A stretch of DNA of 64,000 nt, from positions 57,082 to 121,081 of the forward strand of contig JAZROY010000003.1 of the NCBI GenBank assembly GCA_045648925.1, written 5' to 3'. Shown in pieces: positions 1,099 to 51,387 of the stretch (within the stretch, counting starts at the first letter, position 1; each line of letters starts with the position of its first letter). This DNA comes from Candidatus Enterousia sp. GTDB taxonomy: Bacteria > Pseudomonadota > Alphaproteobacteria > Rs-D84. The notes beneath the pieces are model-generated. The model saw only the letters and a program-made list of their open reading frames with translations, was not told where the DNA came from and did no database searches. A program made the position numbers and the translations under genes.

Positions 1099-2173
1099 AA
1101 GTATATTCCTTTGGCATTAAAATAAACATCTGACCCTGGGAATGTTGTCCATGCGCCACTTTATACGCTTCATCACCACTACCGAAAAAGATGTCTGCGC
1201 GTATCCAACCTTTTATCGCACCACCTGTATCTTGGGCAATCATCAAACGATTAAACACGCGTCCATCAGACAAATTCGTATTTATGTATACAGGCAATCC
1301 CAATGTATAAATTGAATCGTCCATCGCAATACTGCGTATTTTTGAAAGCGGTGTTCCCAGTTTTCCAATTACACTTTTTTGTTCTGTTTCATAAAAATAC
1401 ACATAACGCGGATTATTGTAAATTACTTCTTTTGCCAATTTTGGATTTTTCTTTAAATGCGTCCATACTGCATCCGCACTATACCCACCTTCGGGTTTAA
1501 TCCCTTTGTCTTGCAATTGTTTACCGATAGATTTGAACGGCATATCATTAACCGCGGCAAAGTTCAATTTGACTAAACTACCATCTTCCAACTTTAACAT
1601 TCCACTACCCTGGATTTGAAGGTTTTGCACATCGACCATATCTGCCCAATAAAGAACGCGCCCTATTTTCTTTGCGACAATATCTTTCTTTGGCACACCC
1701 TTGTATTCTGCACCATTGATTGGCACACCCATAATTGGTTCGTTGCATTTTGCACTTTGTTTTTTGCAACCTGGTATCACAGGCGAATAATATCCAGTAT
1801 AAGTTCCGGTTTTCCCACCATTTTCATTATAAACCTGATACGGCTGGAAATGGGATTCAAACCAAGCACGCACAGTTGCTATATCCGCACTTGCACTTGG
1901 CAACATATTGCATTTTTCCCGCAAAAGTTCCGCATCTGGGACAACAGAACCCTTGTATTGAATCTTTGCTTTGCAAGTATTACGGAATGCCTGCAACGCA
2001 TACCGAACATCGTCATCGCGCCATCCCGGCAGGTTCGAATACGACACAGCCCGCAAATTTGATGGTATTTTTGAATCATCCCCGACATGTGTCGGTGTTG
2101 ATAAATCACACCCTGCCAGCGCAAAAAATCCAATCAAAGCCAGAATTTTCGTAATTTTATATAATTTAAACAT
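1082..2173 (-). CDS. mltA: Membrane-bound lytic murein transglycosylase A (MltA) lipoprotein
   Basis: Start taken at internal ATG 2173 (MFKLYKITKILALIGFFALAGC lipobox); MltA/3D-domain-like sequence; 363 aa. Confidence 0.75.
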   Translation of the reverse strand: MFKLYKITKILALIGFFALAGCDLSTPTHVGDDSKIPSNLRAVSYSNLPGWRDDDVRYALQAFRNTCKAKIQYKGSVVPDAELLREKCNMLPSASADIATVRAWFESHFQPYQVYNENGGKTGTYTGYYSPVIPGCKKQSAKCNEPIMGVPINGAEYKGVPKKDIVAKKIGRVLYWADMVDVQNLQIQGSGMLKLEDGSLVKLNFAAVNDMPFKSIGKQLQDKGIKPEGGYSADAVWTHLKKNPKLAKEVIYNNPRYVYFYETEQKSVIGKLGTPLSKIRSIAMDDSIYTLGLPVYINTNLSDGRVFNRLMIAQDTGGAIKGWIRADIFFGSGDEAYKVAHGQHSQGQMFILMPKEYTYVKPR

Positions 2174-2252
2174 TTTTGTTTCCCCCACTTGTAAAAATGA
2201 TTTCTTAATGCTATATTATCATAAAACCGAGGATAAAAAAAGGAGCAAATAC

Positions 2253-2711
2253 ATGCCAAAGTTTAATATTATTTCACAATTCTTAAAAGACATCTCTTTC
2301 GAAAGCCCAAATGTGCCAGAATTGTTCTTTAAACAAGACAACGGTCAGGCGAAAATTGAAATCAACCTGGACATCAATATCAAGGGTGCAGACAATAACT
2401 TGTTTATGGTTGATTTGATTACCAAGGTTCATTCTAAATTGGAAAAAGACAATAAAACTATATTTATGATTGAATCTACATATACTGGGATGGTTCAATA
2501 CGAAGAAAAAGACGAAGAAACAAAAAGAAAAACATTATTAATTGATGTTCCAACACTTTTGTTCCCATCTGTTCGCGCAATGGTGACAAGATTGACCGCA
2601 GAATCTGGATTTCCTGCATTTGTTATGCAACCTGTTGACTTTGCTGATTTGTATGAACAAAGACAAAAAGCAGCGGCGGCAAAAGAAACACCAAAACCTG
2701 CAAATCAGTAA
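2253..2711 (+). CDS. secB: Protein-export chaperone SecB
   Basis: ATG at 2253 with AGGAG 8 nt upstream; MPKFNIISQFLKDISFESPNVPELF... typical SecB N-terminus, 152 aa; ORF-track 246-aa version is an unrealistic upstream extension. Confidence 0.85.
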   Translation: MPKFNIISQFLKDISFESPNVPELFFKQDNGQAKIEINLDINIKGADNNLFMVDLITKVHSKLEKDNKTIFMIESTYTGMVQYEEKDEETKRKTLLIDVPTLLFPSVRAMVTRLTAESGFPAFVMQPVDFADLYEQRQKAAAAKETPKPANQ

Positions 2712-2839
2712 CAGATTTTCGTTATTGCGCGTGAAGCGCACAATTAAGAAAATCGAGTTCCGCGCCGTAGCAAGTTTCATTATTTTGGAACACATTTCAC
2801 AATTATCGGCGAAGGCGGGAGAGCACATTATTGTTAAAG

Positions 2840-2870
2840 AAAAAAACCGCCAAATCGGCGGTTTTTGTTG
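2840..2870. terminator. Bidirectional intrinsic terminator between secB and yebC
   Basis: Hairpin accgcc-aaatc-ggcggt flanked by A-run upstream and T-run downstream. Confidence 0.6.
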
Positions 2871-2898
2871 AGGATTTATTATTATAATTTATTTTTAT

Positions 2899-3615
2899 TT
2901 ATGCGGCGGCGGTGAATACCTTTTGCACATCATCATTGGCATCCAGCGCATCAACCAATTTTTCGATTTTTGCATATGCTTCATCGTCCAAATCCATTGG
3001 CATATTTGGGACCCAGGTCAATTCTGCATTTTCTGGTTCGCCCAATTTATCGCTTAATGCTTTTTGAACATTCATGAAATTATCTGGTTTGGTTGTGATG
3101 ATAAAGCCCTCTTCGGATGCTTCCAGATTATCCGCATCAACTTCCATAACCAATTCCATCATTTCATCTTCGGTTTTACCAATACTTGCCGGATACATAA
3201 TTTGCCCAACATGAGAAAACATAAACACGACCGATCCTTCTTCACCCATATTTCCACCGTTTTTGGCAAAAATATTGCGAACCTCTGGCACTGTTCTGCG
3301 TGGATTATCGGTTAATGCCTCTACTATAACTGGCACAGCCCCTGGACCATAACCTTCGTAACGCACAGCCACAAAATTATCTGTGTTCGCACCTGATGCC
3401 TTATCAATAGCGCGTTTAATATTATCGTTCGGCATAGAATTTTTACGTGCCTGTAAAATCGCCAAACGCAATCTTGGGTTATTATCTGGATTTTTATCGC
3501 CCAACTTTGCCGCCATAGTTATTTCGCGTGCCAGTTTCGTAAACAAACCGCTGCGCGCTGCATCAACCAATCCTTTTTTGTGTTGGATGTTGTGCCATTT
3601 ACTGTGTCCACTCAT
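2899..3615 (-). CDS. yebC: YebC/PmpR family DNA-binding transcriptional regulator
   Basis: MSGHSKWHNIQHKKG... canonical YebC N-terminus, 238 aa. Confidence 0.9.
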   Translation of the reverse strand: MSGHSKWHNIQHKKGLVDAARSGLFTKLAREITMAAKLGDKNPDNNPRLRLAILQARKNSMPNDNIKRAIDKASGANTDNFVAVRYEGYGPGAVPVIVEALTDNPRRTVPEVRNIFAKNGGNMGEEGSVVFMFSHVGQIMYPASIGKTEDEMMELVMEVDADNLEASEEGFIITTKPDNFMNVQKALSDKLGEPENAELTWVPNMPMDLDDEAYAKIEKLVDALDANDDVQKVFTAAA

Positions 3616-4239: not shown

Positions 4240-5574
4240 ATGAATAACGATACAATTTTCGCATTATCGTCTGCACCTGGGAAATCAGGTGTCGCAGTTA
4301 TCCGCATAAGCGGTAACGATTTATTAAAACTTTTCAAACGAATTGTAAACAACCCCGCCCTTGTGGCGGGGCCGAAACTGCCACGGCAGTTTCGGGGGCG
4401 GGTCATACCCCGTCATGCATATTTTACAAATTTAAAAGATAATAATGGCGATTTAATAGACCAATGTATTGCTATTTATTTTAATGCGCCCCATTCTTTT
4501 ACTGGCGAAGATATTATTGAAATACACAGCCACGGCAGCCCTGCGGTAATAAACAAAATCTTTGACTTTTTACGCGGATTCGGCGCAAGGATTGCAGAAC
4601 GCGGTGAATTTTCCCGGCGCGCTTTTTATAACAATAAAATGGATTTAACTGATGTTGACGGTTTAATTGCCCTGCTTGATGCACAAACAGACAAACAAAG
4701 ACAAAACGCACTGCGTTCATTAACTGGGCACGATTCAAAAATCTATAATGATTGGCGCAATGAAATGATTGAAATATCCGCATACAGTGCGGCGATTCTT
4801 GATTACGACGCGGATGATTTACCAAAAAACATTGATAAAAAAATATTAACAAAAACTAAAAAGTTATTGGACGAAATAAAAAGTTCTGTGTCTGGTTTTC
4901 GTGCATCGCGCGCAATTCAAAATGGATTTAATATAGTTTTGGTTGGTAAAACTAATGTCGGAAAATCTTCCATTTTTAATAAACTGATTGGTTCAAATCG
5001 TGCCATAGTGTCTGATATCGCAGGTACCACACGCGATGTAGTTTCAACGCAATTGGATATTGATGGATATCTCGTCAACCTTTCTGATACGGCAGGAATT
5101 CGGCAATCACGCAACAAAATAGAAAAAATCGGTATTGAAAAAACATTCAACGAAATTGAAAACGCAGATTTGATAATTCATGTATATAACGAAGTTCCAA
5201 AAAAAATCATTGATAATGAAATTACCGTTATAAATAAATCTGATTTATTAAAAAGTAAAAACAATAAAAAAGTTATTTATACATCCGTAAAAACTGGTGC
5301 TGGTTTTGATAAATTATTAAAAGCAATAAAACAAAAAATGCATAACATTTTGGGCAATGGCGAATCAAAGATTACCATAAATGAACGCACTTATGAATTA
5401 CTAAATGAAACAATCACTGAATTGGAAAATGCGATAAAAAAATATAATGGCAATTATGATATCTTTGCCGAACATGTCAGACGCGCATCCGATAACATTG
5501 GTAAAATATTGGGGGTAATTACAACCAACGAAATCGCCGACATGACATTTTCTCGTCTTTGTTTGGGAAAGTAA
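4240..5574 (+). CDS. mnmE: tRNA modification GTPase MnmE (TrmE), carrying an in-frame GC-rich palindromic insertion
   Basis: FALSSAPGKSGVAVIRISG N-domain, G-domain motifs (GKTNVGKSS, DTAG, NKSD), C-terminal CLGK; 444 aa. About 18 extra residues (NPALVAGPKLPRQFRGRV) relative to the E. coli MnmE N-domain. Confidence 0.9.
   Translation: MNNDTIFALSSAPGKSGVAVIRISGNDLLKLFKRIVNNPALVAGPKLPRQFRGRVIPRHAYFTNLKDNNGDLIDQCIAIYFNAPHSFTGEDIIEIHSHGSPAVINKIFDFLRGFGARIAERGEFSRRAFYNNKMDLTDVDGLIALLDAQTDKQRQNALRSLTGHDSKIYNDWRNEMIEISAYSAAILDYDADDLPKNIDKKILTKTKKLLDEIKSSVSGFRASRAIQNGFNIVLVGKTNVGKSSIFNKLIGSNRAIVSDIAGTTRDVVSTQLDIDGYLVNLSDTAGIRQSRNKIEKIGIEKTFNEIENADLIIHVYNEVPKKIIDNEITVINKSDLLKSKNNKKVIYTSVKTGAGFDKLLKAIKQKMHNILGNGESKITINERTYELLNETITELENAIKKYNGNYDIFAEHVRRASDNIGKILGVITTNEIADMTFSRLCLGK
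4351..4404. repeat. GC-rich imperfect palindrome inserted in-frame in mnmE (Rickettsia-palindromic-element-like)
   Basis: aaccccgcccttgtggcggggccgaaactgccacggcagtttcgggggcgggtc: inner perfect palindrome ccgaaactgcc/ggcagtttcgg, outer cccgccc/gggcggg; >65% GC in an AT-rich gene; length a multiple of 3, no stop. Confidence 0.6.
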
Positions 5575-5579
5575 TAAAT

Positions 5580-5612
5580 TTGAAAAAAACGGCGCATTTG
5601 CGCCGTTGTTAA
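5580..5612. terminator. Intrinsic terminator (strongest on minus strand, downstream of the acyl-CoA ligase genes; also follows mnmE)
   Basis: acggcgc-attt-gcgccgt hairpin with A7 on one side and T-rich on the other. Confidence 0.55.
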
Positions 5613-5734
5613 TTAGAATAATACCACTTCTATAAATTAAATAGAATTGTTTAGATGCGAAGTTGTCGGCAAGTGCAGTGTACAAATGTTACATAAACGC
5701 GCCGACAACCAGCAGATGAATAATTATATTTAAT

Positions 5735-7315
5735 TTATTCTTTTCTATCTGGATAAAGCCCTTCAATCAAATTCTTGCGAACTTCGTGATGTTTGATTTT
5801 CTGGGTGCTTGTCATCGGCAAATCTTCCGTTGTCATCGCAAAATGTGTCACCCATTTATATGATGCGACTTTCTTGTTTGCTTCTGCCACAGCGGCTGCT
5901 AATTTTTCCATTGTCATATTCGGTTCCACTTGGAACACACCGTATGCAACGGTTTTATCACCAACCTTGTGTTCAAAGACCGCGACATTTTTTACACCAG
6001 GAATTTCCATAAACAATGCTTCCAATTCATCAGGATAAACATTTTTACCAGAATCCAAAACAATCACTTGTTTTTTACGACCGGCAAAATGTAGTTCGCC
6101 ATTTTTATCCATATACATCATATCCCCAGTATTAAAGAAACCTTTTTCATCAAATACTGTCGCATTAACTTCGTCATTATTAAGATAACCGTTAAACACC
6201 TGATGTCCACGAACCCATAAAATTCCAACACCATTTTCATCTTTATCACGAATTTCACATTCATTATTAGATGTTGGCGCACCAACAGAATAAGGCAATC
6301 TTTTACTTGTCGGTTTGGAAATACAGATTGGTCCCACGGTTTCGGTTAAACCATATCCTTGGATAAATGCAAGACCAAGTGATTCATAAAAATTTTCCAC
6401 TTCTGGCTTGGTTGCTGCGCCACCGGCAATCAGTAATCTTACACGACCACCGAATATATCCAACAATGGTTCTTGGACTTTGCGCACAACAAAATCAAGT
6501 CCCATATCTTTTAATGTCTTTTGATTATTCAAAATGAACGAAGCAACGCGCCATTTTTTTTGTTGTTTCATACCATCAATAATCTTGTTACGGAACAATT
6601 CCAAGACACGCGGAACAACAGGGATAACATGCGGTCTGAATTTCTTGAAATCATCCAAAATGTATTTTGGATTAACGACCGGTTGCAAAACCAAACCACC
6701 ACCATAATGAATTGTCCCGAGTATACATACCGCGAATCCAAAGATATGATAAAGTGGTAAAAAACCATACATAATTTCCCCAGAATGATAATAATCAGAC
6801 ATATCTTCCAAAGAATTTGCACACTCTATTAAATTAAAGTGTGTCAATGGGACAACCTTTGGTGTTCCGGTAGACCCTGATGTAAATGACATAGTCGCAA
6901 TATCTGTTGATTCCGATGGATACGCCCTAAGGTCATAATCTATATCCCCATCTTTGCGTGTAATATCATAAAATTTAAACTTATCTGTTTTATAAAAGAA
7001 CGACGGTTCCGCACAAACAAATTTACAACCTGCGATTTCACACATCTTATCATATTCACGTGGTGTTAAATTTGTATCCAGCATCAACACAGTTGCGCCC
7101 AAATACCACACTGCAAAAAGTGTCAATGGAAACTGTGGCAAATTATGTGACAAAACACCAACAACATCTCCATTTTTTATACCCGCTTTGTTCAAAGAAG
7201 ATGCGCGTGCACGCACTTGATTCAAGAATTCAGAATATGTGATATTTTCACGAACCAAGAACAAATTTTCAGGCCATTGATTCACCGCATTTTCTAACTT
7301 TTGATACATATTCAT
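5735..7315 (-). CDS. AMP-dependent synthetase/ligase (long-chain fatty-acid--CoA ligase-like), paralog 1
   Basis: 526 aa; adenylate-forming motifs TSGSTGTPKVVPLTH, QGYGLTETVGP, TGDmmymdknGelhfaGRKKqvIvldsGkNVYPdElE. Confidence 0.8.
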   Translation of the reverse strand: MNMYQKLENAVNQWPENLFLVRENITYSEFLNQVRARASSLNKAGIKNGDVVGVLSHNLPQFPLTLFAVWYLGATVLMLDTNLTPREYDKMCEIAGCKFVCAEPSFFYKTDKFKFYDITRKDGDIDYDLRAYPSESTDIATMSFTSGSTGTPKVVPLTHFNLIECANSLEDMSDYYHSGEIMYGFLPLYHIFGFAVCILGTIHYGGGLVLQPVVNPKYILDDFKKFRPHVIPVVPRVLELFRNKIIDGMKQQKKWRVASFILNNQKTLKDMGLDFVVRKVQEPLLDIFGGRVRLLIAGGAATKPEVENFYESLGLAFIQGYGLTETVGPICISKPTSKRLPYSVGAPTSNNECEIRDKDENGVGILWVRGHQVFNGYLNNDEVNATVFDEKGFFNTGDMMYMDKNGELHFAGRKKQVIVLDSGKNVYPDELEALFMEIPGVKNVAVFEHKVGDKTVAYGVFQVEPNMTMEKLAAAVAEANKKVASYKWVTHFAMTTEDLPMTSTQKIKHHEVRKNLIEGLYPDRKE

Positions 7316-32934: not shown

Positions 32935-33268
32935 TTTACACCCTTTTACTTTTGTCCTGGTGTCAAATAATTGGATTTGGCACCGATTCAAATCTTAAAT
33001 TTTCAGGGGCGCTTAAGATTTTTTTCGCGCGGTGCCACCCTGATTTTTTACTTTTTGTTTTTATTCAGATATTCCGCGGTTGTCAGTCGCATCACTACAT
33101 CTGATAAAAAACGAACAAACGCAAGATAGATAACGCATTTGTTATGTGCCCGACGGGCGACACAAATGTATCAGATATTGCGGATTGTGAAGTTTTTGTA
33201 ATGGGAGTGTATTAAACATACATGACCAGAAACAAAAACGAACAAACGCAAGATAGATAATGCATTTG

Positions 33269-33342
33269 TGGTGCCCTAAACAAGAATCGGACTTGTGACT
33301 CGTCCTTACCAAGGACGTGTTTTACCACTAGACTATTAGGGC
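33269..33342 (-). tRNA. tRNA-Thr (anticodon GGU)
   Basis: Minus-strand fold: acceptor gccctaa/ttagggc, anticodon stem cgtcc/ggacg with loop ttggtaa, T arm acaag-tccgatt-cttgt, CCA encoded; the D stem has one mismatch. Confidence 0.75.
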
Positions 33343-33381: not shown

Positions 33382-34251
33382 CTAAAAATTAGATATCGCG
33401 CATTTAATTTTTTTAGTCAATTTTACACCACCAAATTCATTACAATGATCCGGGCTATCAAAATCAGAATCTTTAAAATCTTTATCTCGTTGGAAATTCA
33501 GCAATTTAACATCTTTATGTTTGTTTAAAAAATCGAATAACTCTCGATAAACAACACTTTCATCTGGTAAACATTTTAAATAGTCAGATCGATATGGAGG
33601 CAATACAACATAAACATTATGTTTTACGCGTTTGGCTTTATTTACAATTTTTTCCAGATATTGTATCTGGTTATTATTACGCATAGTATTCTTAAGATGT
33701 TTTCCGACCAAAACACTTGTAGGTTCATTAAAATGTGTCAAGTTATAAGTCGCCTTGCCCCTAAAACCATCTGGACAAACAGTGCTTTTCTTTTGTTTTT
33801 TTAATATCTCCATACCTTCTTTGTCATCTATTGGTAATTTAGATGCATAAGTTATATTATATAATCCCTTATAGGGGATACATCGAACAAACTCGCGCGT
33901 TTTTTCTAATTGAAGCCCGGCATGAAACACAGACCAAAATAAAATCACATTTTTAAGTTTTTTGCCGTTATGCTTTGCCACATATTCATACAGCTTCCAA
34001 CCTCTATATAAATCTTGTGAAGAATTAGCCAGATTGAAATCAAATTTTGTTGGGATAAAACCATCCCTACCATGAGAAGAGCCAAGCACTAAATTTTTTA
34101 AATCATGACACTTGCCCAGCGCAATAAATTTCATAATATCATAACTGAAATCTGGTAGAGCCACCGGCTTGTAATAAGACCAAATTTTAATCCCACAAAA
34201 ATAGATATTTCTGGTCCCATTAAGCAAGCATATTTTTTTGAAAATCTTCAT
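33382..34251 (-). CDS. Hypothetical protein (accessory gene between two tRNA genes)
   Basis: 289 aa; no confident family; lies between tRNA-Thr and the tRNA-Met repeat array. Confidence 0.4.
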   Translation of the reverse strand: MKIFKKICLLNGTRNIYFCGIKIWSYYKPVALPDFSYDIMKFIALGKCHDLKNLVLGSSHGRDGFIPTKFDFNLANSSQDLYRGWKLYEYVAKHNGKKLKNVILFWSVFHAGLQLEKTREFVRCIPYKGLYNITYASKLPIDDKEGMEILKKQKKSTVCPDGFRGKATYNLTHFNEPTSVLVGKHLKNTMRNNNQIQYLEKIVNKAKRVKHNVYVVLPPYRSDYLKCLPDESVVYRELFDFLNKHKDVKLLNFQRDKDFKDSDFDSPDHCNEFGGVKLTKKIKCAISNF

Positions 34252-34353
34252 AAAACTGCCTTTTTTGCTAAACTATTTTATCAATAAAGGATTCGAAATC
34301 AAACAAAATAAAAACATTGCAAAGTCAAAAAACTCTGATATAATGCGTTTCAC

Positions 34354-34428
34354 TGGCGGCGTAGCTCAGTGGTAGAGCAGAGGAATCATAATCCTTTGGT
34401 CAGGGGTCCGAATCCCTTCGCCGCTACC
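34354..34428 (+). tRNA. tRNA-Met (anticodon CAU), elongator type (could alternatively be tRNA-Ile2 read with lysidine)
   Basis: Acceptor ggcggcg/cgccgct (G1-U72), D arm gctc-agtggta-gagc, anticodon loop atCATaa, T arm, CCA encoded; lacks the initiator hallmarks. Confidence 0.8.
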
Positions 34429-34759
34429 AAAATAACAAACGACCTTTGTGGTCGTTTTTTATTTTGATATCTGGGATTTGGACACCGGCACAGGGGTCCG
34501 ACCCGCAGCAAAAAGGCGGAATAACGCCGGTTTGCCGTCAGGCAAATTTTGCAAGGGAGTGAAGCGCAGCGAAACAATCCCTTCGCCGCTACCAAAATAA
34601 TAAATGACCCTTGTGGTCATTTTTTATTTTGATATCTGGGATTTGGACACCGGCACAGGGGTCCGACCCGTAGCAAAAAGGCGGAATAACGCCGGTTTGC
34701 CGTCAGGCAAATTTTGCAAGGGAGTGAAGCGCAGCGAAACAATCCCTTCGCCGCTACCA
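34429..34759 (+). repeat. Two tandem ~166-bp units (34429-34594, 34595-34759), each = terminator hairpin + GC-richer structured body + exact copy of the last ~20 nt of tRNA-Met
   Basis: The units are >90% identical; each ends ...gcagcgaaacaatcccttcgccgctacca, reproducing the tRNA T-arm/acceptor 3' end. Internal hairpins gggtc-c-gaccc, ggcg-gaataa-cgcc, tttgcc-gtcag-gcaaa. Confidence 0.85.
34436..34462 (+). terminator. Intrinsic terminator immediately after tRNA-Met; a second copy sits inside repeat unit 2
   Basis: acgacc-tttgt-ggtcgt + T6. Confidence 0.6.
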
Positions 34760-34808
34760 CGAATATTTCAATTTGTCTTATTTCTTATTTTGTGATAAAA
34801 TATAGTTC

Positions 34809-35384
34809 ATGAAAAAAATACTATTATTGCTAAGCATTTTTGTTTTACCGTTACCAGTCATGGCTGACCCGTGTATTTTACCGGAAAATAATCCTTTTAT
34901 GGGAACATATCAGCAACAGGTTGCCTTTGGTATTGGTCAAGGTTTTGATACTGGTATTTTATTACCACCACCGGTGCGCCCTGTTCCTTTTTACATCGCA
35001 ACTTTTCAATATTCCCAACCAACGACCTTTTTCCGTGTTCCAGCGCGTCGTTCTTTGAATATATCTGAAACACTTGGTTTTTATCGCAAATACGGCTGGG
35101 AATGGCAAGATTATACGATTCCCATGATTTATTTTACCGAAGATATTGCACTTTTTAGATACGACAGCATTTATGCAGGTCTTGGTGCAGGTGCTGGATT
35201 ACAGGCAAAGCAAAACAAGCGCATTGGTTCTAAATTAATTTTTGAATTTAAATTAACTTTTGGTTATAACTTTAATGAACAGTGGGCAATGGAATTCTTT
35301 ATTCAACATTTTTCCAATGCCAACACCGCGGACGAAAATAATTCTTATGCATTTTATGGTCTTGGGTTTACATATAATTATTAA
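34809..35384 (+). CDS. PagL-like outer-membrane lipid A deacylase / acyloxyacyl hydrolase family beta-barrel (tentative)
   Basis: 191 aa; signal peptide; C-terminal aromatic OMP terminus ...GLGFTYNY; QHFSNAN resembles the PagL H-x-S-N active-site motif. Confidence 0.45.
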   Translation: MKKILLLLSIFVLPLPVMADPCILPENNPFMGTYQQQVAFGIGQGFDTGILLPPPVRPVPFYIATFQYSQPTTFFRVPARRSLNISETLGFYRKYGWEWQDYTIPMIYFTEDIALFRYDSIYAGLGAGAGLQAKQNKRIGSKLIFEFKLTFGYNFNEQWAMEFFIQHFSNANTADENNSYAFYGLGFTYNY

Positions 35385-49775: not shown

Positions 49776-49852
<77 letters not shown>

Positions 49853-50385
49853 GTTAAATGAAAAATACACCCCTGTGGTGTATTTTTTATTTAATGTGTG
49901 TTGTGTTGGGTTTGAACCACCGGGGCAAGGTGGTTCAGTGCAAGGATTAGGCAGACGGCAGTATGCCGGTTTGCGACAGCAAAAATCCGCAGCCAATGAA
50001 GCGAAGCGAAATAAATCCATCTCCCGCAACCAGTTTAAATAAAAAACGTGTCCAAAGCGGCACGTTTTTTATTTAATTTGTTGTGGATTGTTGGTTTGAT
50101 ATCATACAACGCAGTTGTTTGGTTCAAAATTTGTATATAAGAACGAGTTTTTACCCATATTTGGTAAAAACGAAGTTCGAATAACTACAAATTTGCGCGC
50201 AGACACAAAGTGTCGAGCGAATTCCATCTCCCGCAACCAAGATTTAATAAAAAGCACCCCTTGTGGGTGTTTTTTTGTTAAATATGTGTGTTGTGTTGGG
50301 TTTGAACCACCGGGGCAAAGTGGTGCAAAACAAGGATTAGGCAGACGGCAGTATGCCGGTTTGCGACAGCAAAAATCCGCAACTA
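49853..50385 (+). repeat. Array of three tRNA-fMet 3'-end-associated units: A 49853-50042 and B 50043-50239 each end in a copy of the last ~20 nt of tRNA-fMet; C 50240-50385 repeats the body of A (49895-49990 vs 50285-50380, ~93% id) and is cut off at the galE stop
   Basis: Units A and B end ...aaatccatctcccgcaacca and ...aattccatctcccgcaacca; each unit begins with a terminator-like hairpin + T-run. Body hairpin gaaccacc-ggggcaa-ggtggttc. The 3' part (gccggtttgc...tgaagcgNagcgaaaNaaatcc) is shared with the tRNA-Met locus units at 34429-34759. Confidence 0.85.
49860..49888 (+). terminator. Intrinsic terminator after tRNA-fMet
   Basis: tacacc-cctgt-ggtgta + T6. Confidence 0.65.
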
Positions 50386-51387
50386 TTAAACATCCAATTT
50401 ATTTTGATAATTCCAAGAATCACGACACATATCATCCAAAGAATATTCTGCAACCCATCCCAATACGCGTTTCGCTTTTTCTGGATTGGCATAGCACATC
50501 GCGACATCGCCGGGTCGCCGCGCTATAATTTCATACGGGATTTTTATCTTATTTACTTTTTCAAAGGTTTTTATTACATCCAATACAGAATATCCATGCC
50601 CTGTTCCCAGATTAAATATTTCCAAACCACACTTTTTATCAATCGCGAACATTGCGCACACATGCCCACGCGCCAAATCAACCACATGGATATAATCCCT
50701 GACGCCTGTGCCATCAGGTGTATCATAATCATTGCCATATACAAACAATTTTTCACGTTTTCCACACGCAACTTGGGTAATATAAGGCATCAAATTATTT
50801 GGGATACCGTTCGGGTTTTCACCAATCAAACCTGATGGATGTGCGCCAACAGGGTTAAAATAACGCAAAATAACAACATTCATATCTGGGTTTGCTTTTT
50901 GCATATCCACCAAAATTTGTTCTATCATATGTTTGGTCCAACCATATGGATTTGTACATATACCTTTTGGGCATTCTTCGGTAATCGGCACAAATGCAGG
51001 TATTCCATAAACAGTTGCACTGGACGAAAAAATAATATTTTTGCATCCTATTTCATTTAAAACATTTAACAAAGATATTGTCCCAGAAATGTTATTATCG
51101 TAATATTCAACAGGTTTAACCACAGATTCTCCGACAGCCTTTAACCCAGCAAAATGAATACAAGCGTCAATTTTGTACCCAGACAAGAAATTTTTTAATA
51201 CATCTTTATCGCGGATATCGATATTTGAAAATTCTATTTTTTTACCTGTAATTTTTTGAATATTATCCAAAACATTAATTGATGAATTACATAAATTATC
51301 TATACCAACGATATCAAAACCATTATTTTGCAATTCAACAATTGTATGCGAAGCAATAAATCCTGTGGCACCTGTTACTAGAATCAT
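50386..51387 (-). CDS. galE: UDP-glucose 4-epimerase
   Basis: 333 aa; MILVTGATGFIASH Rossmann motif, YxxxK, GalE-like throughout. Confidence 0.85.
   Translation of the reverse strand: MILVTGATGFIASHTIVELQNNGFDIVGIDNLCNSSINVLDNIQKITGKKIEFSNIDIRDKDVLKNFLSGYKIDACIHFAGLKAVGESVVKPVEYYDNNISGTISLLNVLNEIGCKNIIFSSSATVYGIPAFVPITEECPKGICTNPYGWTKHMIEQILVDMQKANPDMNVVILRYFNPVGAHPSGLIGENPNGIPNNLMPYITQVACGKREKLFVYGNDYDTPDGTGVRDYIHVVDLARGHVCAMFAIDKKCGLEIFNLGTGHGYSVLDVIKTFEKVNKIKIPYEIIARRPGDVAMCYANPEKAKRVLGWVAEYSLDDMCRDSWNYQNKLDV

Follow-up and report, generated by a model that had tools for sequence, protein, structure and literature searches.

The 64,000-nucleotide stretch of a Candidatus Enterousia sp. genome considered here (contig JAZROY010000003.1; below, the window) carries, directly behind the CCA end of a gene called as tRNA-Met, two near-identical tandem units of 165 bp. 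In our judgement these are probably small (~160–210 bp), gene-less and non-autonomous cassettes which accumulate head-to-tail at tRNA 3′ ends in Candidatus Enterousia and the order Rs-D84. The family is previously undescribed, a literature search aimed at earlier descriptions of such units having found none, and what is new is that the units are miniature and uniform in size, that several conserved, covarying scaffolds occupy the T-loop slot, that the T-arm is present in an inverted copy and that the same scaffold is re-armed for at least seven tRNAs. The underlying logic is already known from integrative elements that target tRNAs and from the cis-mobilizable elements (CIMEs), which derive from them and lack an enzyme. 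An earlier note, made from the letters of this DNA alone, had suggested small integrase-less elements targeting tRNAs, and the suggestion is strengthened by the polymorphism among strains and by a scaffold with cognate arms at many tRNAs, although integration itself and the enzyme behind it are what we infer rather than observe.

The array is headed by the tRNA gene at 34355–34429 (+), which has a CAU anticodon, is called as Met (Met or Ile2) by ARAGORN, scores 66.4 bits against the Rfam tRNA model and is preceded by a promoter-like TTGCAA-16-TATAAT at 34317–34344. Unit 1 (34430–34594) and unit 2 (34595–34759), both on the + strand and both of the scaffold type that we call A, were delimited by Tandem Repeats Finder and by alignment. 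Over 34411–34759 the program finds 2.1 copies of a 165-bp period at 97% matches, so that the near-identical tandem units described in the earlier note right after the CCA are there, with their length corrected from 166 to 165 bp and with 5 positions differing between the two. Two of the differences, 34440 (C/T) and 34454 (G/A), together form a compensatory change from a C-G to a T-A pair in the terminator stem of unit 1 versus unit 2. The precise copy of the tRNA 3′ end that closes each unit is likewise real and measures 19 nt (tRNA positions 58–76; 34576–34594 in unit 1 and 34741–34759 in unit 2): the 19-mer AATCCCTTCGCCGCTACCA occurs at three sites in the 64 kb, 34411, 34576 and 34741, which are the tRNA end and both unit ends, and at none in shuffled sequence, and a 38-nt body motif has two sites in the window, one per unit. 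The two open reading frames (ORFs) drawn over this region, 34386–34595 (−) and 34604–34795 (+), exist mechanically and are spurious, with no Pfam match, but rather than lying entirely inside the units they overlap them and extend into the tRNA or the downstream spacer.

Every unit of the family follows the same order of five parts, namely a terminator palindrome, an inverted copy of the T-arm, the 5′ half of the T-arm, a scaffold and the tRNA 3′ copy. First, the palindrome stands right after the CCA and is predicted to terminate transcription on both strands, with stems of 8 bp at tRNA-Met and 18–19 bp at the initiator tRNA (fMet) locus. In unit 1 it occupies 34437–34465 as a stem-loop (34437–34457) followed by a T-run, and in unit 2 the hairpin is at 34602–34622; the terminator scan scored both hairpins as intrinsic terminators in either direction, as it did at the fMet locus, and the terminator hairpin with which the earlier note let each unit begin is therefore a bidirectional one. 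Next comes a reverse-complement copy of the cognate T-arm, CTGGGATTTGGACACC in the Met units (34471–34486 and 34636–34651) against the T-arm GGGGTCCGAATCCC, with 86% complementarity to the arm at 34403–34416. Behind tRNA-His the inverted arm is CAGATTCGAACTGGC in one locus (L020), complementary at 15/15 positions, and in another (L038) it extends into the acceptor strand. After a loop of 6–7 nt the T-stem 5′ strand is repeated in direct orientation together with the T-loop as far as A58; this copy is AGGGGTCCGA (34492–34501) in unit 1, identical to tRNA positions 49–58, and lies at 34657–34666 in unit 2. The scaffold of ~75 nt (34502–34575 and 34667–34740) follows, and finally the copy of tRNA positions 58/59–76. 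Since the scaffold is flanked by the T-arm 5′ half on one side and by the 3′ copy on the other, it sits exactly in the T-loop slot of the tRNA 3′ third. This slot, the second tRNA-derived segment that defines it and the inverted copy of that segment had all escaped the earlier note. The inverted arm moreover forms the outer part of a longer imperfect palindrome that has the terminator loop at its centre and takes in the tRNA 3′ part before it.

The arms are matched to the tRNA behind which they are found. Left-arm complementarity has a mean score of 9.9 for the cognate tRNA versus 7.1 for non-cognate ones (p = 1e-9, for related sequences and hence tests that are not independent). About 8 of 32 units have an internal T-arm 5′ half with mismatches to the local tRNA, and the 3′ copies are exact; in one unit (L005_0) a T-arm half that is not of the tRNA-Met type and comes closest to His-type units, GCCGGTTCGAA, is joined to a Met 3′ copy. 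Exact 3′ copies, imperfect internal arms and this chimera mean that the 3′ copy behaves as derived from the target and the rest as borne by the element, and this pattern in the sequences suggests that the 3′ copy comes from the target and not from the element. A tRNA gene or pseudogene copy, or a tmRNA-like or other tRNA-like fold, was rejected as an identity for the units because the acceptor 5′ strand is missing, and ARAGORN calls no tRNA in them, only positions 49–58 and 58/59–76 being present and split by the scaffold. Neither do the units resemble miniature inverted-repeat transposable elements, as terminal inverted repeats are absent (the ends AAATAA... and ...CTACCA are not inverted, and the inverted repeats present are internal) and the "duplication" consists of 18–20 nt of one specific tRNA, not of a short target-site duplication.

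For the scaffold we propose a fold in which a short closing helix P0 precedes a helix P1 that encloses P2 and P3 in a three-way junction, with a 2-bp mini-hairpin in addition. In unit 1 these helices lie within 34502–34575 (+), with P2 at 34515–34528 and P3 at 34531–34546, followed by the conserved tail CAAGGGAGTGAAGCGNAGCGAAAC and a GCGCAGC mini-hairpin at 34564–34570. Of the three short hairpins drawn earlier in the unit body, ggcg-gaataa-cgcc (P2) and tttgcc-gtca-ggcaaa (P3, its loop corrected to GTCA) are real and supported by covariation. The third, gggtc-c-gaccc, is not the best parse: GGGGTCCGA pairs with the upstream inverted T-arm copy at 34471–34486, and the CCC after it forms P0 in unit 1 with the GGG at 34556–34558. 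In an alignment of 32 scaffolds 93.9% of the paired cells are observed as pairs, as compared with 78.1% in shuffled controls and 25–48% when the 3′ partners are slid, and cells changed on both sides number 94 versus 32 in the shuffles (a comparison made with the shuffled control). At single positions of P1 the pairs GC, CG, AU and UA all occur, the last pair of P2 is AU in 16 and GC in 16 sequences, P3 switches from UA to CG in 11 sequences, and in one subtype two P1 pairs are replaced by tandem G-A/A-G. As read from the alignment, this implies a scaffold that would be under selection for structure and not in neutral decay. The 3′ tail TGAAGCGNAGCGRAA is almost invariant and contains GCGNAGC, where N is A, C or T across the family; in the window the motif occurs at 34564–34570, 34729–34735 and 50000–50006. 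GCGNAGC is a "mini-hairpin DNA" motif of extraordinary stability that occurs at single-strand DNA priming sites (PMC13037366). Scaffolds of at least three further types (B, D and F) are found in this slot, which brings the number of types to at least four. In the first hairpin of type B, which is seen at the Met, the fMet and both Ser genes, both strands co-vary (GATTTTGG/CCAAAATC, GATTACAC/GTGTAATC and GATTTGAT/ATCAAATC), and in two loci (L024 and L033) types are concatenated as F+D and F+B.

A conserved fold of this kind could also belong to a structured non-coding RNA gene linked to tRNAs, as the earlier note had considered, with read-through from the strong tRNA promoter yielding a three-way junction with a tRNA-like 3′ tail (T-stem 3′ strand, acceptor 3′ strand and CCA), an RNA that would be processed or would serve as a guide, as a decoy or as a mimic of the tRNA end, and with arrays arising by duplication. 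Besides the strong covariation of P0–P3, such an origin would account for the fold z-score of −3.2 obtained for one unit, for a U-G pair in P0 (10 sequences) and the tandem G-A pairs in P1, both of which favour the tRNA-sense strand, for the fact that every body stops exactly at CCA with a terminator next, and for the 18–19-nt tail, which begins in the T-loop and resembles a guide that follows its scaffold on the 3′ side. We nevertheless regard it as unlikely. The promoter scan of the Met and fMet loci found no promoter-like (sigma-70-type) site inside the units, a bidirectional terminator stands between the tRNA and every body, so that the bodies are bracketed by such terminators, and the acceptor 5′ strand is absent, hence there is no tRNA-like fold. 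Fold energies of the + and − strands do not differ (−44.0 versus −43.3 kcal/mol, p = 0.45), which makes the strand unusable for telling RNA from DNA. Rfam returned tRNAs only, with nothing on the window units at E ≤ 10 or at six other loci at E ≤ 1, and the polymorphism in presence and type among near-identical strains, together with versions that carry cargo, fits selfish DNA better. Several more specific identities were also tried and rejected: a hammerhead or other known ribozyme, as the core does not fit and has no Rfam match; a guide RNA of the TnpB or IS110 type, as there is no associated protein and the intact self-target would be cut; and a retroviral-type primer-binding site on the minus strand, as there is no reverse transcriptase context.

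The family extends well beyond the window. A scan of 185,579 species-representative genomes with the scaffold pattern gave 30 loci, of which 24 are real, and the same pattern on metagenome contigs gave ~22 further loci. The real loci all come from AT-rich Alphaproteobacteria of gut or rumen, and the hosts in the genome scan are metagenome-assembled genomes labelled Candidatus Enterousia, uncultured Alphaproteobacteria or proteobacterium; genomes of the host order Rs-D84 measure 0.75–1.0 Mb and are ~90% coding (PMC12306168). The scaffold was found behind tRNA-Met, fMet, His(GUG), Ser(UGA), Ser(GGA) and Arg(ACG) and next to Pro-like 3′ segments, and 3′-end copies also occur 180–260 bp behind tRNA-Glu and tRNA-Pro genes, so that the family stands behind at least seven kinds of tRNA and probably eight or nine. 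A covariance model, R1, built from 32 units and searched over ~477 kb of loci, recovers the two tRNA-Met units (34495–34576 with 87.9 bits and 34660–34741 with 86.1 bits) among 49 distinct scaffold copies, 48 of which run on into the start of the tRNA 3′ part, the exception (L056) being cut right after the scaffold. For 37 copies a same-strand tRNA lies upstream within the locus, and the 3′ copy is an exact one of 19–20 nt in 25/37 and a shorter match in 2/37. The other 10/37 have no match of at least 8 nt to the nearest upstream tRNA, mostly since their 3′ copies are shortened by downstream deletion; in two of these cases the copy is in fact exact and the ARAGORN tRNA call truncated (L047), or the nearest tRNA is a non-cognate one (L045). 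As expected of an element flanked by attachment (att) sites, direct repeats of the tRNA 3′ part bound the insert and the tRNA is left intact (66 bits in Rfam). The alternative raised beforehand, a generic dispersed repeat, would have copies away from tRNAs, and none were found in the genome and metagenome scans. Phage and plasmid collections held no match to the two tRNA-Met units.

A number of matches were set aside in these searches. Eleven matches of a looser first pattern on viral contigs are all GC-rich and coding, without a tRNA, and are chance matches; GC-rich false positives among the loci are L021, L023, L027, L028, L040, L049, L059, L062, L066, L067, L071, L072, L074, L075, L077 and L078. 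Five of them (L021, L028, L040, L067 and L075) represent a single Rhodocyclaceae repeat that shares GAAGCGNAGCGGAA and scores only 21–32 bits with R1, probably an unrelated repeat resembling the repetitive extragenic palindromic (REP) sequences. In Rhodocyclaceae UBA1310 (L021, L028 and L040, and also in L067 and L075) this GC-rich repeat contains GCGAAGCGGAACAATGAAGCGTAGCGGAA and is present in at least three copies in one genome.

The window itself holds a second array of the same cassette family, which the earlier note, while proposing that the unit body be sought elsewhere, had not recognized. Its head is the initiator tRNA-fMet at 49776–49852 (+). Cassette 1 (49853–50032, +) is 180 bp long, has a scaffold of the same family and ends in 20 nt of the tRNA-fMet 3′ end, and its arms fit tRNA-fMet in the arrangement TGAACCACC-7 nt-GGTGGTTCA, the inverted arm TGAACCACC being the perfect complement of GGTGGTTCA. 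Cassette 2 (50033–50239, +; 207 bp) has an F-type scaffold and ends in 17 nt of the tRNA-fMet 3′ end, and cassette 3 (50240–50385, +) is truncated within the scaffold and abuts an epimerase gene (50386–51387, −). The R1 model matches at 49930–50013 (88.1 bits) and 50320–50392 (46.2 bits), that is, in cassettes 1 and 3, which together with the two tRNA-Met units are the only four places matched in the window. Two of the four tRNA loci in the window thereby carry an array of the family, and a third, tRNA-Thr, has an uncharacterized repeat.

Comparison of strains with identical flanking proteins shows that the arrays are not fixed, which answers the other possibility raised for the units, namely an ancient structure of constant copy number. 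At the Met locus, eight contigs that encode a PagL-like protein identical to that at 34809–35384 were compared. The window has the array A-A, three contigs (L001, L002 and L004) have A-B-C, one (L003) has A-D, one (L005) a chimeric A unit followed by D and one (L006) a single A, and in the remaining two (L007 and L008) the right end of a larger insert comes first, then B and an A tail, with a microhomology deletion at the join. At the fMet locus, among ten contigs that encode an epimerase identical to 50386–51387, the tRNA is followed by the f and F units of the window, by F and a 1.7-kb two-gene segment, by a B-type unit or by a methylase segment, and the truncated distal cassette is common to all strains examined. 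Both conserved loci are thus polymorphic for the presence of inserts, as att-flanked elements are. In tRNA islands new material enters next to the tRNA (bioRxiv 10.1101/2020.12.28.424599), and variation proximal to the tRNA with a fixed distal truncated unit is the pattern expected in that case. Some cassettes at other loci enclose cargo between a left and a right end of the same kind, as with a 168-aa ORF in L022 and L042. At one further locus (L047, 2535–2730) a tRNA-fMet without CCA and terminator runs directly into the inverted arm of a cassette, and a complete 3′ end is found only at the far side; judging from this arrangement, it may represent a deletion that left the tRNA-fMet dependent on the copy in the cassette.

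The same loci can be viewed as relics, each tRNA retaining one att-flanked remnant of an ancient integration that is no longer mobile and is reshaped by gene conversion, by slippage and unequal crossing-over, and by template switching that extends the terminator palindrome. Long palindromes and direct repeats of 19 nt lend themselves well to such processes, terminators and bodies are reassorted, microhomology deletions are seen (in L007 at CGCCG, and in L047), near-identical bodies with differing terminators within one genome (the window; L024) suggest conversion, and the inverted arm belongs to a terminator-centred palindrome. The account does not, however, extend to a scaffold of ~75 nt with a mean column identity of 74% across tRNA kinds that stands behind at least seven of them with matched arms, since the same scaffold with arms matched to each tRNA requires movement between loci with retargeting. 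Nor does it fit that a single slot is used by at least four types of scaffold, which occur at several tRNAs (type B at the Met gene, at fMet and at both Ser genes), that one type stands in place of another at a locus whose neighbours are identical between strains, or that the covariation speaks for structural selection. We therefore judge it, too, to be an unlikely explanation, and the decayed islands of the earlier note do not suffice for the conserved covarying scaffold types, the constant size and the arms matched at different tRNAs.

No enzyme was found that would belong to the cassettes. Of 171 clusters of flanking ORFs, 149 were scanned with Pfam, 22 long clusters being set aside, and the statements on flanks that follow refer to the best 25 of 138 families. 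The family Phage_integrase appears in only 2/149 clusters, and no recombinase or transposase family is enriched. The units themselves, at 165 bp and with only mechanical ORFs that lack a Pfam match, have no integrase of their own, and none stands at the array heads among the loci examined. The upstream neighbour at the Met locus is a divergent 289-aa ORF (33382–34251, −) just before the tRNA, which is conserved in related loci and has no Pfam match even at E ≤ 0.1; it was rejected as an analogue of intI on account of the lacking match and its absence at other tRNA arrays. One locus (L037) has a likely tyrosine integrase, by its catalytic-motif residues, at 1662–2840 along with a RhuM gene at tRNA-fMet, bounded by a plain 37-nt partial tRNA, and probably accounts for one of the two Phage_integrase matches. 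In another (L025) a large serine recombinase ORF (native 4387–5955; oriented 2043–3614) lies antisense over the 3′ half of tRNA-Arg. Both recombinases belong to ordinary larger islands of kilobase size at the same tRNA sites. Pfam matches of neighbour and cargo ORFs include RhuM, C5 methylase and pentapeptide repeats, alongside unknowns. In the array flanks (L020–L091) GNAT acetyltransferases are the most frequent (5/149 clusters), and NERD nucleases, methyltransferases and RhuM are found too. The flanking and cargo families are typical accessory or defence cargo.

An enzyme of a different class would be needed if the cassettes were miniature derivatives of a single-strand transposon (HUH/Y1, resembling IS200-IS605 or REP with its associated tyrosine transposases, RAYT) that inserts 3′ of a specific target without duplication, the terminal 18–20 nt and the inverted arm being element-borne "guide" and "cleavage-site" partners as in IS608, only longer. 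The units do have subterminal hairpins and a perfect left-end palindrome that doubles as a terminator, as the left-end palindrome of IS200 does, scaffold types B and F finish in a hairpin plus ~6 nt, insertion is always right after ...CCA and the element itself ends in ...CCA, the GTAG/GCAG next to a palindrome is like the heads of REP sequences, and the single-strand DNA motif GCGNAGC is present. We find this origin the least probable of those weighed here. No Y1 HUH transposase (TnpA/RAYT) or TnpB was noticed near the units among the best 25 of 138 Pfam families from ~480 kb of flanks, known members recognize targets of 4–5 nt as opposed to ~20 nt, and the L005_0 chimera, with exact 3′ copies as against imperfect internal arms, suggests a 3′ copy derived from the target.

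For the cassettes, which we thus prefer to see as integrating elements, a mechanism can be proposed. A free cassette would consist of tRNA positions 58/59–76, the terminator palindrome, the inverted T-arm copy, the T-arm 5′ half and the structured scaffold, in this order, and conservative site-specific recombination within the 18–20 bp of identity from T-loop A58 to CCA would insert it. The tRNA would in this way receive a new, identical 3′ end and a terminator, the old 3′ end would be pushed to the far side of the cassette, and repeated insertion would produce arrays. The recombinase would act in trans, a tyrosine recombinase being the default guess. The attachment site would probably be read in a folded form, as single-stranded or cruciform DNA, to which the DNA-type mini-hairpin, the inverted arm, the covariation and the lack of a promoter all point. 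In such a site, pairing of the inverted arm with the T-arm 5′ half and the 3′ copy would recreate the T-arm region of the tRNA gene as a duplex, from which the scaffold would emerge as a branch at the T-loop, and the target would be chosen by arms that match a tRNA and can be exchanged on a conserved scaffold. We infer the trans-acting enzyme, the folded single-strand site, the crossover point and the recombination inside the 3′ identity. Carried further, the model would describe a structure-guided integration system that uses tRNA genes as integrons use attI, with one trans-acting recombinase that would recognize the conserved scaffold as folded single-stranded DNA, and with two swappable arms (the inverted T-arm on one side, the T-arm 5′ half and 3′ end on the other) whose pairing would recreate the chosen tRNA gene as a duplex and thereby programme the target; this extension we put forward tentatively, as a rather doubtful possibility.

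Several observations weigh against integrating cassettes or against parts of this mechanism. Terminator variants and body types reassort freely among units, which leaves the boundaries of the moving unit undefined and means that exchange between repeats, by gene conversion or homologous recombination, clearly plays a part and is frequent. At the Met locus it is the cassette beside the fixed flank that varies, which simple addition next to the tRNA would not predict, and an identity of 19 bp is sufficient also for slippage or unequal crossing-over. The second type-A copy in the window could equally have come from a separate insertion or from an unequal crossover between the 19-nt repeats, although the terminators of the two units correspond to two old alleles that coexist in L024, which slightly favours separate histories. 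Islands that do carry an integrase (L037 and L030) have a plain partial-tRNA right attachment site (attR) without a scaffold, so that such islands do not explain the scaffold. The idea of a folded single strand draws on inverted repeats, covariation and one DNA-type motif, and folding as RNA gives the same covariation; the U-G pair and the tandem G-A pairs noted above, which slightly favour the tRNA-sense strand, are also explained by a transcript. Finally, no empty tRNA-Met site was seen among the loci compared.

The cassettes share features with a number of known systems and are identical to none of them. Islands with P4-type integrases and the tycheposons of Prochlorococcus, which are tRNA-targeting islands with tandem accretion (bioRxiv 10.1101/2020.12.28.424599), likewise insert at tRNA 3′ ends and restore the tRNA, leave partial tRNA copies between elements, are most heterogeneous among strains next to the tRNA (here at the fMet locus) and bring defence or accessory cargo. 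Unlike them, the units measure 160–210 bp, lack an integrase, possess a covarying scaffold, an inverted T-arm and a second tRNA segment, and present one scaffold re-armed for many tRNAs, the integrase islands at these same loci having a plain attR. CIMEs, the att-flanked, cis-mobilizable remnants of integrative and conjugative elements (ICEs) without recombination genes, such as those related to ICESt1/3 of Streptococcus thermophilus, are similarly non-autonomous, have direct repeats of the att type and accrete in tandem at the site of integrase-bearing elements; however, they are kilobase-sized deletion derivatives of one parent ICE, whereas the units comprise several uniform miniature types whose secondary structure is under selection and which have no identifiable parent. 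The attC sites of integrons and the attP of CTX-phi and other integrative mobile elements exploiting Xer recombination (IMEX) act as folded single-strand sites, and inverted target-like copies in the units could rebuild a duplex site on folding in a comparable manner. Arrays of integron cassettes are also promoter-less, with some cassettes empty and some containing 1–2 genes, and attC is an imperfect palindrome whose structure is conserved over sequence. In contrast to integrons, the head of the array is a tRNA gene with no adjacent intI or attI, there are no R/L boxes or GTTRRRY core, the boundaries read ...CTACCA/AAATAA, the scaffold is a side branch and not the apex as in attC, and the use of single-strand DNA by the units is only presumed. 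Lastly, the Rickettsia palindromic elements and the REP sequences and bacterial interspersed mosaic elements (BIMEs) are dispersed repeats located in proteins or intergenic regions, with no match to a tRNA end and no tRNA-anchored arrays. They resemble the units in being structured and ~100–150 bp long, in occurring in small alphaproteobacterial genomes and defined contexts and in having no enzyme in cis, and differ in that the units match and duplicate the tRNA end and form arrays anchored at tRNAs.

Two further observations concern other tRNA features in the window. Downstream of tRNA-Thr (33269–33342) there is a 36-nt direct repeat with copies 127 nt apart (33107–33269, −), the first of which abuts the tRNA-Thr 3′ end; a small hairpin ahead of the second copy has a right arm like the tRNA end (GGGCAC), and the repeat may be another, differently built tRNA-linked unit. 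The T-loops of tRNA-Met (34403–34416) and tRNA-Thr (33284–33297) read TCCGA(A/T)T and have a C at position 55, as they do in related metagenome-assembled genomes (MAGs). This position is nearly universally a U (pseudouridine 55) in tRNAs.

For annotation, the cassettes explain spurious ORFs and repeat-induced assembly breaks behind tRNAs in Enterousia MAGs. Despite being small and ~90% coding, genomes across the lineage carry arrays of non-coding cassettes behind six or more kinds of tRNA. The family is also a testable case, outside integrons, of an attachment site defined by structure and not by sequence. If the cassettes are mobile, they would constitute a compact, enzyme-less vehicle for gene gain with a cargo of 1–2 genes (methylases, RhuM-type proteins and unknowns), as well as a natural case of one scaffold retargeted by the exchange of short matching arms, which would be relevant to programmable insertion. 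Should the structure-guided model prove true, one small machine, able to carry a cargo of one or two genes as well, could be enough for many tRNA loci of a genome of less than 1 Mb.

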